A stretch of 33,709 nt of DNA from an uncultured Candidatus Saccharibacteria bacterium. GTDB lineage: Bacteria; Patescibacteriota; Kazan-3B-28. Below the pieces are notes generated by a model that did not search any database, was not told the origin of the DNA, and was given only the letters and a program-made list of their open reading frames with translations. Shown piece by piece: positions 5,128-30,566 of the stretch (the stretch's first letter is position 1; every line of letters starts with the position of its first letter). The stretch lies in NCBI GenBank assembly GCA_964350005.1, contig CAYGIK010000003.1:1-33709 (forward strand), read 5' to 3'. The position numbers were made by a program, and so were the translations under genes.

Positions 5128-5266
5128 CAAATTCATATTTCCAATAGCAAAATTGACCGGTATGGATAGCGTTGTTTGACCCATCCCCAGTTGGAACAAC
5201 TGGAGATGGGGAGTATAGCGTATAGTCCAGAAAGGTCATATTTTGCTCTATTGGAAAATGAATTTG
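5128..5266. ncRNA. candidate structured RNA (6S-like architecture) or MITE-like palindromic element
   Basis: About 30-bp closing helix 5128-5158 / 5234-5266 with three small bulges. Two-sided internal loop 5159-5179 (21 nt) / 5211-5233 (23 nt). 14-bp terminal hairpin 5180-5193 / 5197-5210. Strand not determinable. Confidence 0.3.
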
Positions 5267-10295: not shown

Positions 10296-10635
10296 TCGCT
10301 TCAATCTCGGTAATTAACTCTGGCTCCCCTTCGCCTAAAATCGTCACTACCCCCAAGCCAACTGGTGCCCGTGGTCCCTTTTCTTTTCGAAAATTCTCCG
10401 CTACTAATTGCATCCGTTTCAACTTCTTTCTGGTTATCACCTCCGCCGGTGAACCAAATCTGACACTCCCTCTTGTCTTCACTTCAATCATCAGCAGTTT
10501 CTTGCCATCCCAAGCAACAATGTCCGCTTCCCCAAAGCGGCACCGATAATTTCGTTCCAGCAACCGCCAACCTTTACGCTCAAGCCAGTCTGTCGCTTTA
10601 TCTTCCCCCAGTTGTCCAATTGTACGATTAGCCAC
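10288..10635 (-). CDS. yraN: YraN-family (UPF0102) PD-(D/E)xK endonuclease
   Basis: GEDKATDWLERKGWRLLERNYRCRFGEADIVAW...LLMIEVKTR is the family signature. GTG start at 10635. Confidence 0.85.
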   Translation of the reverse strand: MANRTIGQLGEDKATDWLERKGWRLLERNYRCRFGEADIVAWDGKKLLMIEVKTRGSVRFGSPAEVITRKKLKRMQLVAENFRKEKGPRAPVGLGVVTILGEGEPELITEIEAID

Positions 10636-10662
10636 CCCGTAGAAGAATTTAGAAGATATGTC
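10635..10662 (-). promoter_or_regulatory. copy of the GATAT(A/G)TCTTCTAAATTCTTCTACGGGG motif abutting the yraN start codon
   Basis: 27 of 28 nt identical to 30133-30160 in the equivalent orientation. The last G of the motif is the first base of the GTG start. Confidence 0.6.
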
Positions 10663-10748
10663 TATTTGCTTGATGAAATGTCGTCATGCATGAGTATTTG
10701 ACCAAACAACTAGCCCTAAAGAACATCCTTAGTCAACGACATATCAAA

Positions 10749-11456
10749 TCAAGCGATTCTAAATTTCTCTGCGGGGCCAATAGTTTCTTGCGTTAATTTG
10801 TGATGCATCATCAATTTAACGGGCGCAAAGCTTTTTCGGTGTGCAGGACAAATTCCGTGCTTAGCAATTCGCTCTTGATGCAGTGCTGTACCGTAACCTT
10901 TGTGAATCGCGAAGCCAAATCGTGGATACTTTTGATGTAGCTCTACCATTAGTCTGTCCCGAACCACTTTTGCCACAATTGACGCCGCCGCAATAGATAC
11001 CGACTTTTGGTCTCCGTCGATAATACCGCTACTGGGAGCGGAAATGAAATTAACTTTGAACCCATCCACCAAAATAAAGTCTGGTTTTTTCTTCAACCCC
11101 TCAACCGCCTGTGCCATCGCAACATAGGTCGCCTGCGCAACTCCTAATTTATCAACTTCATCTACTTCAACCACCCCCACACCAACTGCCACTGCCAATT
11201 TCTGGATTTTAGAGAACAACCCATCTCGTTGAGAGGGAGTCAGCTGTTTTGAATCATTGATACCAGTATCTTTAGAAACATCAGTCGGCAAAATCACCGC
11301 AGCAGCAACCACCGGTCCGGCCCAAGAGCCTCGACCGGCTTCATCCACTCCAGCAACTAACTTAACTCCGGCTTCCTTCAGTGTCGTCTCCAGCTCCAGC
11401 GTCGGACTTGTCAGTGACTGTTTGCTTTTCCCTCGAGTTTTGCTCTTCTGTTCCAT
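10749..11456 (-). CDS. rnhB: ribonuclease HII
   Basis: VAGVDEAGRGSWAGPVVAAAV catalytic motif, SKQLT, DGDQKS.SIAAASIVAKV. GGAGGTG SD 5 nt upstream of the ATG at 11456. Confidence 0.9.
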   Translation of the reverse strand: MEQKSKTRGKSKQSLTSPTLELETTLKEAGVKLVAGVDEAGRGSWAGPVVAAAVILPTDVSKDTGINDSKQLTPSQRDGLFSKIQKLAVAVGVGVVEVDEVDKLGVAQATYVAMAQAVEGLKKKPDFILVDGFKVNFISAPSSGIIDGDQKSVSIAAASIVAKVVRDRLMVELHQKYPRFGFAIHKGYGTALHQERIAKHGICPAHRKSFAPVKLMMHHKLTQETIGPAEKFRIA

Positions 11457-22336: not shown

Positions 22337-22350
22337 ACGCATTTTAAATT

Positions 22351-22396
22351 CTCTACCAATCCCGAAGGGACCCCTTTGGGGCTGAGCCAACGGCCC
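22351..22396 (-). pseudogene. partial second copy of the tRNA-Ala 5' end (positions 1-24) interrupted by a 22-nt insert
   Basis: GGGCCGTTGGCTCAG (22396->22382), then CCCCAAAGGGGTCCCTTCGGGA (22381->22360), then TTGGTAGAG (22359->22351). No anticodon or T arm follows. Confidence 0.8.
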
Positions 22397-22406
22397 CTGC
22401 TGTCCG

Positions 22407-22415
22407 AATATAACA
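22407..22415 (-). promoter_or_regulatory. extended -10 element TGTTATATT upstream of the tRNA-Ala locus
   Basis: Minus strand TGTTATATT ends about 10 nt before the upstream partial tRNA copy. There is no clear -35. Confidence 0.4.
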
Positions 22416-27618: not shown

Positions 27619-29931
27619 TTATCGAGAGCCGATAGTAACACCTGTGTAATAATAAGTCAGAATTTCCTGATAATTTTTACCCTGCAAAGCCATATTTTTT
27701 GCGCCCCACTGCGCCATTCCCACACCATGTCCCCAACCCTGTCCTGTAAAAACAAAACTGGGATAAGCTGGGTCACCCGTTAATTGAACGCTAAACTTCA
27801 TACTCTTTATTTCATTGTTGTCAGTCAGATAATCAAAAGTCTTGGACGACATAGGTACAACTTTACCACTTTGCATAGTAAATGTTATCGTTTTTAGTCT
27901 GCCCGACGGATTCCGCTCCGTCACCGCAATACCTGTAATCACATCCGTATTTGGCACAACCTTCAGCGCTTCATCAAAACGATTCTGTAAATAATCTTGG
28001 GATAATGTCGCCGTCCATTCAATCGGTTTAGCGTATGGGTCTGGCACTGCTCTCAAATATGGAATCACTCTTGTCCAAACATTTTCTACATTTTCGGTAT
28101 AACCGCCACTATCCGAAAAGTAGTAAGCCGAAATTGGCACACCATTATGTCTAATAATCACCCCCCGAGTCGATTCCGCCGCCGCAACCAGTCCTGGTCG
28201 ACTAGATTCATAATTGTAGCCAAAATAAACTTGATCTCGAGTGTCATCGTAAATATCAAAAATATCAGCTATCGGAGCTGTTAATTTTGTCACAGCATAT
28301 GTCCGCGCCGCTACCATTTGCGCCCTTTGCGCTTCTGCCGGCCAACCTTCCGGTACCTCAGCAATACCCTTCATATAATCTTCCAACTCTAATATATTTA
28401 CCACCCAAACATTGCTCGACATACTGGATCGGCGCACTTCAATAATCCCGCGAAATGTGTCATACGACGAACCAATCCCGCTGGTACGCACTGTTAACAA
28501 TGCATTGTTCTGCGGAATAAATCTCAAATAATCGTTTATCTGTTCACCAGTATTTAGACTGCACCCTCCGTTAAATGCAGTTACTGTCACACTTCCACCC
28601 TGCACCTTTTTCACCAAACTTTTATCCGATCCTTTCCGAATTACAAAACCGCTTCCCCGAATCGTAATTGTATCAGTCGTGGAAGTAATGCCAACTCGAA
28701 TTGGATCTTTTAAAATCAACTCTTCGTCCACCGAAATATCCCAACGCAACCCTGTATCAGTCAGCCATATAATCCCTTCTACCACCGGACGAAAATATTC
28801 CTGATATTTACCTATTTTATTAGGCGCTTTAATAACAAATTCAAACCGACCCGTTTCTCCAGGTTGAACCTTTGCCGGTGCTACGGCGACCACCCGATTT
28901 TTACTCAACCACGAAATATCTTGAAATAGGCTAACGCGATCCAAACTCCTTGCTGTCCCCAATTTCACCGCATTTAACCCCTCTCCCGACCAAACTGTAT
29001 TGCCTGTATTCTTAAACTCCGCCCACAAAGTAACCGTATCCCCCGGTGGCAAAGACATAGAGACAGTTGATTGATTCACCAATTCAGCCGACCATATCGC
29101 CGGTACTACTTTCACCGTTAGCCAAAACCTCACCGGTATCCATGCCGTTCCTTCCGCTACCAAACTAAATTCTTCCTTAAAAGTACCTGTTTTGTTGGGA
29201 GCCTGAATCGTAAAAGCAAATTCACCTTCGCCTTGAGGCTCTATTACCGTACTCGCCGACACCACTCGGTTTTTACTCAACCAACTTGAGTGATATAAAC
29301 TACTCGCCCTATCAAACGGTTTACTGGTCGCAATCTTCACTGCCCCCGCTCCATTGTTCGCCCATGCCACATCACCCATATTCCGAACTTTTATTGTGAT
29401 ATTGGCAGTTTCCTGTGTTTTCAGTTCAAAATTAGTTGCCGACTGAGTCACCAGTTCTCCCTTAAAAATTGCCGGTTGGATATTAATAATTAGAGGAATT
29501 GACAAATTAAACCAACTCACCCGCTCCATCACCAAGTTAAAATAATCCGTCGATTTACCACTCCCCGTTGCTGTCGCCAAGAAACTAAAGTGTGCCGTTT
29601 CTCCAGTCGCGACTGTCGCTTCCTGCATTGTTGCCGGCCGATTATCCCCAATCCAACCCAAACTTACAAACCGACTTTTGTGGTCCGTTGGCTTTATAGT
29701 CCCAAGATTCACCGCATTGTTCCCACTATTAGTCCAAGTGGTACTACCAACATTTTTAATTGTCACTATAAACTCAGCAGTCGTGCCCGCCTTGGCAGTA
29801 ATTGGAGAATTAGTCGAAACCAGCTCGGCTTTTAACCCGGTTGCTTGCGCAACCGCCAAACTAGGCGAGGTGATTATCCACCATGCCATCATTACAAACA
29901 TCCCCAGACTGATAATTATAAGTTTTTTCAT
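27619..29931 (-). CDS. SpoIID/LytB-domain protein with three N-terminal NBR1-like Ig repeats
   Basis: Signal peptide, then three ~125-aa repeats (each with N.G...W, W(L/I)..NR, GE...F.F...AP). The C-terminal SpoIID domain has AQMVAARTYA, YYFSDSGGYTENVENVW and GHGVGMAQWGA. Confidence 0.85.
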   Translation of the reverse strand: MKKLIIISLGMFVMMAWWIITSPSLAVAQATGLKAELVSTNSPITAKAGTTAEFIVTIKNVGSTTWTNSGNNAVNLGTIKPTDHKSRFVSLGWIGDNRPATMQEATVATGETAHFSFLATATGSGKSTDYFNLVMERVSWFNLSIPLIINIQPAIFKGELVTQSATNFELKTQETANITIKVRNMGDVAWANNGAGAVKIATSKPFDRASSLYHSSWLSKNRVVSASTVIEPQGEGEFAFTIQAPNKTGTFKEEFSLVAEGTAWIPVRFWLTVKVVPAIWSAELVNQSTVSMSLPPGDTVTLWAEFKNTGNTVWSGEGLNAVKLGTARSLDRVSLFQDISWLSKNRVVAVAPAKVQPGETGRFEFVIKAPNKIGKYQEYFRPVVEGIIWLTDTGLRWDISVDEELILKDPIRVGITSTTDTITIRGSGFVIRKGSDKSLVKKVQGGSVTVTAFNGGCSLNTGEQINDYLRFIPQNNALLTVRTSGIGSSYDTFRGIIEVRRSSMSSNVWVVNILELEDYMKGIAEVPEGWPAEAQRAQMVAARTYAVTKLTAPIADIFDIYDDTRDQVYFGYNYESSRPGLVAAAESTRGVIIRHNGVPISAYYFSDSGGYTENVENVWTRVIPYLRAVPDPYAKPIEWTATLSQDYLQNRFDEALKVVPNTDVITGIAVTERNPSGRLKTITFTMQSGKVVPMSSKTFDYLTDNNEIKSMKFSVQLTGDPAYPSFVFTGQGWGHGVGMAQWGAKNMALQGKNYQEILTYYYTGVTIGSR

Positions 29932-30016
29932 AAACTAGCGTTCTTTATTATACCTCATTCGTTTCACCCTCCTCTTGCTGGGCTCACTCTGATATCCGAT
30001 ACTAGTTATAGATATG

Positions 30017-30057
30017 CCCCGTAGAGAAATTTAGAACTGTTCTGCTAAGATATATCT
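30017..30057 (-). promoter_or_regulatory. inverted, slightly diverged copy of the shared motif facing the SpoIID gene
   Basis: CCCCGTAGAGAAATTTAGAA (18 of 20 nt match the reverse complement of 30141-30160), then an 11-nt insert, then AAGATATATCT. Confidence 0.55.
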
Positions 30058-30130
30058 GCTAGTCAATAACTCTACAAAGAACAATCCTCACTTCCACCCC
30101 TTTTAGTTACAATGAACTACGCAAACAGTT

Positions 30131-30160
30131 AAGATATATCTTCTAAATTCTTCTACGGGG
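30131..30160 (+). promoter_or_regulatory. AAGATATATCTT palindrome plus CTAAATTCTTCTACGGGG motif abutting the hsp20 ATG
   Basis: Ends 1 nt before the ATG at 30162. A possible TTACAA - 17 nt - TAAGAT promoter overlaps the palindrome. Confidence 0.55.
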
Positions 30161-30161
30161 T

Positions 30162-30566
30162 ATGTTACGCGATACCTTTTTCACCAGATCAGACCCCAAA
30201 ACAACAGACCAGTCATCTCCCGCTGATGCGACCGAGCTGGAGTTACCTGTTGATATCCTACGAGTTGGTGACAAGTTAATAGTAAGAACTCCTATCGTAG
30301 GAGTAGATATCAATCGAGTTAGTGTATCCTTGGGACAGAATCAGCTAACTATCCATAAGGCTGCTGTTCCGCCAACTGATATTGATGAACCCGACAGAGC
30401 TTATACCGAAGAGTGCTACTGGGGAGAGTTGTCCCGCTCGATAGACTTACCTGTGTCGGTGAACCCCGATGCTACCCGCGCATCTCTCCATGAAGGAATC
30501 CTAACTATTGTTATGCCGATTTTAAACCCCCGACAATCTAAAATAATCCGTATCAAAAAACCATGA
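30162..30566 (+). CDS. Hsp20/alpha-crystallin family small heat-shock protein
   Basis: Alpha-crystallin domain pattern (PVDILRVGDKLIVRTPIVGV...VSVSL..NQLTI......GELSRSIDLP..V.....ASLHEGILTIVMP). Confidence 0.85.
   Translation: MLRDTFFTRSDPKTTDQSSPADATELELPVDILRVGDKLIVRTPIVGVDINRVSVSLGQNQLTIHKAAVPPTDIDEPDRAYTEECYWGELSRSIDLPVSVNPDATRASLHEGILTIVMPILNPRQSKIIRIKKP

Follow-up and report, generated by a model that had tools for sequence, protein, structure and literature searches.

The window, i.e., the whole stretch of DNA analysed (33,709 nucleotides), contains the small heat-shock gene hsp20 and, divergent from it, a gene with a SpoIID domain. Pfam supports both assignments. hsp20 (30162..30566, + strand) is intact, encodes 134 amino acids (Pfam HSP20; the orthologue in the same-genus genome G003 is 91% identical) and is the first gene of the downstream operon. 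The native SpoIID/hsp20 spacer (29932..30012, no strand assigned) can be aligned with all four same-genus relatives and terminates in the -10-like TACTAG/TATAGA just before the original ATG. It is presumed to hold the native hsp20 promoter.

Between this spacer and hsp20 lies a unit of 144 bp, framed by two copies of TATG. The left copy (30013..30016, + strand) corresponds to the single TATG that the relatives have in AGATATGTTACG. It contains the original start codon of hsp20 (ATG, 30014-30016), which now opens a 6-codon mini-ORF (30014..30034, + strand; ATG CCC CGT AGA GAA ATT TAG, MPRREI*, as read from the sequence), i.e., the old start codon joined to the left terminus of the unit. This left terminus, termed B arm (CCCCGTAGAGAAATTTAGAA, 30017..30036, + strand), is near-invariant in the 48 elements described below. 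It pairs with the right terminus, termed A arm (TTCTAAATTCTTCTACGGGG, 30141..30160, + strand), which is invariably turned toward the host gene. The interior (30037..30140, + strand) is not conserved and carries two sub-terminal AAGATATATCT boxes (30047-30058 and 30131-30142). The right copy of TATG (30161..30164, + strand) gives the present start codon at 30162-30164. hsp20 is the host gene whose start codon took the insertion.

A first-pass annotation of this DNA had described the two arms as inverted repeats matching at 18 of 20 positions. This is correct; the two mismatches are adjacent (positions 10-11 of the 20-nt arms), and a repeat finder extends the pairing to 30014-30036 / 30141-30163 (20/23). 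It is likewise confirmed that the box AAGATATATCT(T) occurs twice in the unit, that its right-hand copy is a perfect 12-nt palindrome and that the right arm stops 1 nt short of the hsp20 ATG (30162). AAGATATATCTG at 30047-30058 and the perfect palindrome AAGATATATCTT at 30131-30142 form a 16-nt direct repeat, for which 0.05 hits are expected by chance in the window. The association of box and arm, however, holds for the hsp20 unit and is no feature of the family, as a GATATATC-like box is present in ~20% of the copies. Nor is the motif specific to the SpoIID/hsp20 control region: the arm pattern was found four times in the window (0 expected), the two further arms form a second convergent pair at 10635-10776, and the genome holds at least 15 units.

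Insertion sites and start codons

The region 5' of hsp20 was aligned between G000, the source genome of the window, and four same-genus genomes (G001-G004). The spacer is conserved in these four congeners, and all of them read uninterrupted ...AGATATGTTACG... At the same site, G000 reads ...AGATATG[144 bp]TATGTTACG... The gain in G000 amounts to 148 bp, namely the 144-bp element and a 4-nt target-site duplication (TSD), and lies precisely on the start codon. The best reading of the alignment is that the unit entered the hsp20 start codon after the G000 lineage had split from the sequenced congeners.

The second copy in the window (142 bp, 10635..10776, - strand) sits at the junction of the RNase HII stop and the yraN start. 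Its duplication is TGG, which appears on the + strand as CCA at 10632-10634 and 10777-10779. In G003, the site is empty and reads ...accaTTGGctaatcg..., with the core aTTGGctaa, in which the RNase HII stop overlaps the TTG start of yraN. The filled site reads TTGG[element]TGGctaa. As a consequence, yraN now starts with a GTG composed of the last G of the element and the duplicated TG, and RNase HII is lengthened by 8 residues encoded by the element.

Ten insertion sites of G000 are cleanly empty in G003, a complete genome of 560 kb, and show duplications of 2-4 nt. At seven of these ten sites, the left and right flank alignments overlap outright by 3-4 nt. The duplications at the printed G000/G003 junctions are TATG, TGG, TGCG, ATG and CAA, and in one case TG only; the TSD length is thus variable (2, 3 or 4 nt). 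Among the ten insertions is a 310-bp copy that carries a nuclease gene (TSD TGG). One G003 site holds a collapsed remnant of ~40 nt. G003 itself has seven elements, two of which share G000 sites, and five are located at other sites.

The G000 assembly comprises 548 kb in 59 contigs (43.7% GC). Convergent arm pairs with a spacing of ~140 bp were found on at least 12 contigs, and a profile search recovers 15-16 units. Among 41 related genomes, the termini were found in six, patchily distributed over two families of the order; all carriers are candidate-division-Kazan / Patescibacteria MAGs. Multi-copy exact matches of the terminus variant of the window are confined to MAGs of this same group. 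The 18-mer of the terminus also has single matches in unrelated phyla (Pedobacter, Aequorivita and others); these are taken to be chance hits, with 72 found and ~140 expected in 596 Gb. Most short copies measure 130-149 bp. The termini of different copies have a mean pairwise identity of 88%, and the interiors are 51.5% identical versus a shuffled baseline of 48%, i.e., at random level. The G000 and G003 members of one short lineage share 93% identity, yet they reside at different genes. Conversely, unrelated copies occupy the start codons of the ribosomal protein L11 gene and of a helicase gene in different genera.

These observations bear out one proposal of the first-pass annotation, a 144-bp MITE with terminal inverted repeats. 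The hsp20 unit has its TATG duplication, and the family shows presence/absence polymorphism with clean empty sites at orthologous positions. The terminal inverted repeats match at 18/20 positions in the hsp20 copy and vary little among the 48 copies. The units are short (105-181 bp), non-coding and present in at least 15 copies per 548-kb genome. They also have a coding partner, a form of 309-313 bp with the same termini in four of the six carriers, whose sole protein is a GIY-YIG nuclease and not a known transposase. The genome comparisons demonstrate in silico that the element family is mobile.

To describe the placement of the copies, 48 elements from six genomes were oriented by the small differences between the two arms (left ...GTAGAGAA, right ...TTCTTCTAC). 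In 39 of them, the start of an ORF of 60 aa or more falls at -1 to +2 nt of the A-arm end. At the mirror position, the B-arm end, the count is 0/48, so that the same arm is always directed toward the gene. If intergenic and near-start positions alone are allowed, 7.8% of the elements are expected at start codons (P ~4e-35); this expectation derives from a crude gene model of G003 (89% coding), and as a few insertions are shared by orthologous sites of different genomes, the effective n lies a little below 48. Four insertions at TTGACA-like (-35-like) sequences are among the exceptions. The host start is always rebuilt, in one of two ways. Either the duplication (TATG or ATG) supplies a second ATG, or the last base of the element joins the duplicated TG, by which ...GGGG plus TG yields GTG and ...GGGA plus TG yields ATG.

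A -10-like hexamer lies 4-10 nt upstream of 20 of the 38 targeted starts, compared with ~20% of all crude starts, and an SD-like motif precedes only one of them (1/38), compared with ~14%. The enrichment of -10-like hexamers and the near absence of SD-like motifs indicate that the targeted starts are mostly of the leaderless type. The duplicated 4-mer has the weak consensus T-R-N-R, with A at -1. We found no extended target motif and no upstream or -10 signal at a fixed position relative to the insertion point. We hypothesise a structure- or transcription-coupled targeting of DNA that is melted at leaderless starts. Part of the start-codon bias could also stem from purifying selection against other insertions in a genome with 89% coding sequence. 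According to the first-pass annotation, occurrence at many positions unrelated to gene starts would speak for a plain dispersed repeat. The many positions were indeed found, but nearly all of them are gene starts. The placement at gene starts reflects the insertion behaviour of the element rather than host regulation.

Termini and the nuclease-bearing form

Pairing of the termini was computed for a set of 95 distinct pairs. Watson-Crick pairing reaches at least 94% at positions 1-9 (position 4, with 64%, excepted) and 12-20; positions 1, 9, 13, 14 and 17-20 show two to four types of compensatory pairs. Past position 20, the pairing ends abruptly. Positions 10-11 are Watson-Crick paired in 1-2%; here, a G.T stands beside an A.C, in 65 pairs in one order and in 29 in the other. 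The two mismatches between the arms at hsp20 are this family-wide G.T/A.C tandem mismatch. Symmetric recognition of duplex ends explains the co-variation, but it does not readily explain a fixed mismatch, which points to recognition of a folded form. Hence, we infer that the termini are recognised folded, as single-stranded DNA, cruciform or RNA.

The interiors fold slightly better than shuffled sequences (mean z = -0.93), and the interior of the hsp20 copy does not differ from them (z = 0.0). As the interiors fold near the shuffle level, the structure consists essentially of the 20-nt termini, together with the sub-terminal box in some copies. The idea of a hairpin spanning the whole element was rejected for the same reason.

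In G000, the nuclease-bearing copy measures 310 bp (contig C8:17318-17627). Between the same termini, it carries an ORF of 89 aa (C8:17339-17608, - strand), which encodes a GIY-YIG nuclease (Pfam E = 2e-14). PF01541 spans residues 1-71 of 87, so this is a single-domain protein. The residues Y, Y, G, H-N and R-E are invariant in the family alignment. Five close homologues in the 41 genomes (61-100% identity) are all located exactly between a terminus pair of 309-313 bp. They belong to G000, G003, G010 and G016 (two copies), each at the start codon of a different gene, and the nuclease of 88-91 aa is intact in all four of these carriers. The nuclease gene begins in an overlap with the inner end of the left terminus and stops in the right sub-terminal region. 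Related genomes without arms also lack the close nuclease clade. Comparison of the nuclease copies gave dN values of 0.18-0.35 with saturated dS; the two pairs with a computable dS have dN/dS values of no more than 0.13. The sequence comparisons show purifying selection on both the nuclease and the termini.

Long and short copies share nucleotide similarity in their terminal 22-29 nt only, and tblastn detected no nuclease relics in the short interiors (best E = 0.09). In G010, the resident long copy and ten of the 11 short copies have the identical terminus variant, and a truncated nuclease remnant adjoins a solo arm. Searches of NCBIfam and of PDB sequences with the nuclease gave no match. 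The transposase families searched for were DDE_Tnp_1, rve and Y1_Tnp. Y1_Tnp (PF01797) is absent from all six carrier genomes (controls positive), and DDE_Tnp_1 and rve are absent from five of the six; G000 has one match to each of these two, elsewhere in the genome.

In public data, the nuclease clade comprises at least 300 clusters at about 60-70% identity from many Patescibacteria lineages. The layout with the nuclease between termini was recorded in 5 Kazan elements, 4 from named lineages and 53 from metagenomes. Contigs of Falkowbacteria, WWE3, Paceibacterota and Minisyncoccia carry the nuclease between 20-21-nt termini with a CCnGTAG core. These copies are bordered by TATG, GATG, TGAA or TGA duplications and directly followed by a host gene with a rebuilt start. 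From 80 metagenome loci, 53 non-redundant elements were obtained whose termini were recognised by a strict pattern. Their median length is 314 bp (range 294-328), a host ORF starts at the right end in 81%, and the left junction retains a copy of the start codon in 83%. The main TSDs are TATG (15), TGGA (6), TGAA (6) and ATGA (5).

Explanations for the unit at hsp20

With a probability of roughly 0.85, the 144-bp unit is a non-autonomous, MITE-like copy of a family of GIY-YIG-associated mobile hairpin elements in Kazan/Patescibacteria. For this family, insertion polymorphism, TSDs, strict orientation, preference for start codons together with their re-creation, and purifying selection are all demonstrated in silico.

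Two regulatory readings had been put forward. In one of them, the unit is a host operator or promoter module that co-controls hsp20 and the divergent SpoIID operon in the manner of CIRCE or HAIR. This would suit its position between two divergent operons, the outward-facing -10-like hexamers (TAAATT) within the arms and the occurrence of the motif directly at many gene starts; moreover, other mobile repeats are known to have been domesticated as binding sites. However, the genes concerned are unrelated housekeeping genes (yraN, ribosomal protein L11, helicase) and form no heat-shock set, TSDs and empty sites are present, and the palindromic box is confined to a minority of the copies. CIRCE and HAIR are regulon-restricted, conserved upstream repeats, whereas the unit is missing at hsp20 in all four congeners, which have kept the rest of the spacer. 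A simple promoter and terminator scan of 29850-30300 called nothing, with no canonical sigma-70 promoter, and neither supports nor excludes an outward promoter in the arms. We regard the operator as very improbable. The other reading is scarcely credible. It takes the unit for an RNA thermometer, in which co-transcribed arms hide the hsp20 start and open upon heat shock. Small hsp genes are classic targets of RNA thermometers, and in the transcript, the arms are predicted to form a stem whose base carries the start codon (MFE of -40.8 kcal/mol at 37 °C; the start codon is paired with a probability of 0.67). The right arm, however, is predicted to stay at least 0.87 paired up to 65 °C and hence provides no switch in the physiological range. 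The same helix also precedes genes unrelated to heat shock and is absent from hsp20 of all congeners, so that neither the physiological melting nor the conservation with the gene that mark a thermometer was found. An Rfam scan of 29800-30400 (E ≤ 10) returned chance-level matches to DicF and a Trp leader, none of them on the element.

Two further explanations accept the insertion and differ in how the copies move or arise. The element might be moved by some other transposase, or by host recombination at hairpins, with the nuclease as selfish cargo or a homing-type coloniser. GIY-YIG enzymes are hydrolytic, and none is known to carry out strand transfer or to be a transposase; host ligation or repair would therefore be needed if the nuclease were the mobiliser. 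Moreover, G001 and G006 have arms and short copies and no close nuclease homologue, and G000 has the DDE_Tnp_1 and rve matches mentioned above. Against such a mobiliser, in every long copy, the nuclease gene takes up exactly the interval between the termini, these termini bracket no larger insert in any carrier genome, none of the three transposase families occurs in the other five carriers, and the terminus variants track the resident nuclease copy. We consider it unlikely. It is quite unlikely, too, that the short copies are immobile remnants left in situ by internal deletion of long, nuclease-bearing insertions. Long copies do decay, as seen in the truncated nuclease by the solo arm of G010 and the ~40-nt remnant of G003, and decay in place would account for non-coding copies on start codons. 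The sizes of the short copies are nevertheless tight, their interiors hold no detectable remnant of the nuclease gene, and the 93%-identical short lineage occurs at different genes in G000 and G003.

For the mobile hairpin element, which we favour at hsp20, the anatomy of the copies suggests the following mechanism. The GIY-YIG protein would be the enzyme that mobilises both the long and the short forms. Its substrate would probably be the termini in folded form, as single-stranded or cruciform DNA, much as Ssn recognises its hairpin repeats (see below). The element has no recognisable promoter or SD sequence and would live off the transcription of the host gene and its mostly leaderless translation start. 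In the long copies, a short ORF runs from the old start through the left terminus and ends 1-11 nt short of the ATG of the nuclease gene (e.g., ...TTTAG A ATG); one lineage has it in the nuclease frame. At its 3' end, the nuclease gene reaches with its stop codon into the rebuilt host start (ATGA, L154) or ends at most ~22 nt upstream of it. The host start would thus express the nuclease, and the ribosomes would then pass on to the host gene. At hsp20, the mRNA is expected to begin at 30014 with the MPRREI* mini-ORF, and its 5' leader is predicted to fold into a stable stem of 20 bp with the hsp20 AUG at the base. hsp20 might then be translated after ribosomes on the mini-ORF have opened the stem, by re-initiation or a shunt-like transfer, after processing of the stem, or from a weak outward promoter in the arm (TAAATT). 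As the hsp20 start lies at the base of a hairpin, any effect on expression would be a by-product of the insertion and no evolved heat-shock control.

We see the chances as evenly balanced that the ~310-bp unit is an autonomous transposable element of a class new to prokaryotes, and the smallest one known. Its sole protein, the ~89-aa nuclease, would work together with host repair or ligation, would recognise the 20-bp stem with its G.T/A.C mismatch, and would move the element, as well as 140-bp non-coding derivatives in trans, specifically to the start codons of mostly leaderless genes. At these sites, the element would take over transcription and translation starts of the host for its own gene and rebuild the host start codon. 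The family would add a transposon type of ~310 bp with a non-canonical enzyme, and it would be the first in silico proof of mobility for a small GIY-YIG nuclease/repeat unit. At hsp20 itself, the result removes a tempting but mistaken annotation as a novel heat-shock operator or thermometer. Patescibacteria, with their streamlined and largely leaderless genomes, show a rare insertion logic in which start codons are hit and regenerated. This bears on the tolerance of leaderless mRNAs for added 5' structure. Gene calling in CPR genomes is affected as well, as element-built GTG starts, C-terminal extensions such as that of RNase HII and spurious mini-ORFs can result. Structure-specific nucleases of this kind could be useful tools.

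Comparison with known systems

The hsp20 unit itself is a MITE copy and thus of a known kind. The enzyme, the size and the target of its family are unusual, and the family seems to be undescribed in the literature searched: full-text searches returned no GIY-YIG-associated inverted-repeat element on start codons and no MITEs in Patescibacteria.

Correia elements of Neisseria are non-coding units of ~100-155 bp with terminal inverted repeats and short TSDs. They are present in many copies, are often co-transcribed with adjacent genes and form hairpins that can alter expression. The short copies of the start-codon element are likewise small, non-coding, multi-copy, ended by inverted repeats and flanked by TSDs. 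However, Correia elements target TA, whereas the start-codon element targets the start codon in an absolute orientation to the host gene. Its interiors are not conserved, and its partner encodes a GIY-YIG nuclease instead of a DDE transposase.

REPINs and REP sequences with their RAYT (IS200/IS605-type Y1) combine conserved arms with a variable spacer, form hairpins with compensatory changes and accompany a single-copy gene flanked by the repeat. IS200/IS605-type elements make no target duplications. The start-codon element resembles them in its conserved arms and variable spacer, its hairpin, the compensatory changes and the small nuclease-type gene flanked by the repeat. It differs in that its arms are not palindromes themselves, in that TSDs are present and in that the carriers have no Y1/HUH enzyme. 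Membership in the REP/REPIN-RAYT group was rejected on the absence of PF01797.

Free-standing GIY-YIG homing endonuclease genes, such as seg of phage T4 and I-TevI, are small and selfish, wedged between host genes and often translationally coupled. Homing endonucleases have a separate DNA-binding domain and rely on homologous repair to the cognate allele; they have no terminal inverted repeats, TSDs or non-coding derivatives. The start-codon element shares with them the small selfish GIY-YIG gene between host genes, but it is found at dozens of unrelated genes. Its termini and its TSDs at so many different genes led us to reject it as a homing endonuclease gene. Non-intron GIY-YIG insertions in rRNA genes of CPR bacteria have been reported (PMC11270868) and may be related to the start-codon element.

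The closest described system is Ssn with its NTS repeat. Ssn proteins (the cd10448 clade) are single-domain GIY-YIG enzymes of ~94 aa that cut single-stranded DNA beside their own directional hairpin repeat, NTS/SRM, and the authors likened the NTS-ssnA-NTS layout to an insertion sequence, with mobility as a hypothesis only (Chenal et al., Nat Commun 2025, PMC11893778). G000 also has a canonical Ssn set, in which two SsnA-like paralogues are flanked by NTS-like repeats, 24 of which occur in the genome, and the nuclease of the start-codon element is ~30% identical to these NTS-flanked paralogues. Both systems have a single-domain GIY-YIG gene of ~90 aa with its own repeat on both sides, and in both, the repeat is multi-copy, directional and structure-forming. 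In the start-codon element, however, the flanking repeats are no hairpins by themselves but pair with each other into a single long-range stem of 20 bp with a fixed tandem mismatch. TSDs, empty sites, presumed short non-coding derivatives and start-codon sites, none of which have been reported for Ssn/NTS, further set the start-codon element apart.

Element insertions at gene starts

The RNase HII C-terminus (…PAEKFRIA*) lies at 10749-10776 on the minus strand and is encoded by the element inserted at the start of yraN. RNase HII now takes its final eight residues, and its stop codon as well, from this element. In the complete genome of the same-genus relative G003, the ancestral arrangement is seen, in which the RNase HII stop codon TAA overlapped the yraN start.

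Another gene start (MNSYDIIVVGAG / MKNYDVIIVGAG) is occupied in two genera. Related element copies are located there in the genome of the window (G000, contig C1:33399-33540) and in the relative G006 (locus L034). About 40 nt are conserved at either end of the two copies, whereas the centre has diverged. In G003, which belongs to the same genus as G000, the site is empty. Related copies in two genera together with an empty site in G003 imply either precise excision or one lineage inserting repeatedly at the same codon.

At C40:915, G000 carries a full 143-bp element, and the orthologous G003 site contains a collapsed remnant of ~40 nt (GGAGTAGAGGAGATTTCTGG-TAAGATATC-AGGG). The G003 host gene starts with GTG, preceded by GGG, and this GGG-GTG start is likely the scar of an older insertion.

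A second hairpin family

The 139-nt hairpin element at 5128-5266 has a predicted folding energy of -68.6 kcal/mol. Its own termini, CAAATTCATATTTCCAATAG and CTATTGGAAAATGAATTTG, are distinct from those of the start-codon family, and contigs C11 and C12 carry them again. The element represents a second MITE-like family of G000, unrelated to the start-codon family.

GIY-YIG genes between duplicated tRNA-gene ends

Outside the window, three more small GIY-YIG genes of G000 (C5:8554-9107, C11:12860-13413, and C6:5621-6153) are each located between direct duplications of tRNA-gene ends, the duplicated sequence being either CCAGCTCCACCAGTCTTCGCT or, beside a tRNA, ATACGGGCGGTTAGCTCAG. These genes resemble cassettes that integrated at a tRNA gene or inside one, and they may be related to the split tRNA-Ala copy at 22341-22415 of the window.

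Comparison with the Ssn/NTS system

A canonical Ssn/SRM set is also present in G000, a Patescibacteria genome, because it contains NTS/SRM-like repeats and two longer SsnA-like GIY-YIG paralogues flanked by NTS-like repeats in inverted orientation. The repeat, TGTCATTCCCGCG(T/A)AGGCGGGAATCCATTT, occurs in 24 copies (e.g., C6:20350-20730 and C5:9169-9366, outside the window) and comes close to the Neisseria NTS consensus (Chenal et al. 2025, PMC11893778).
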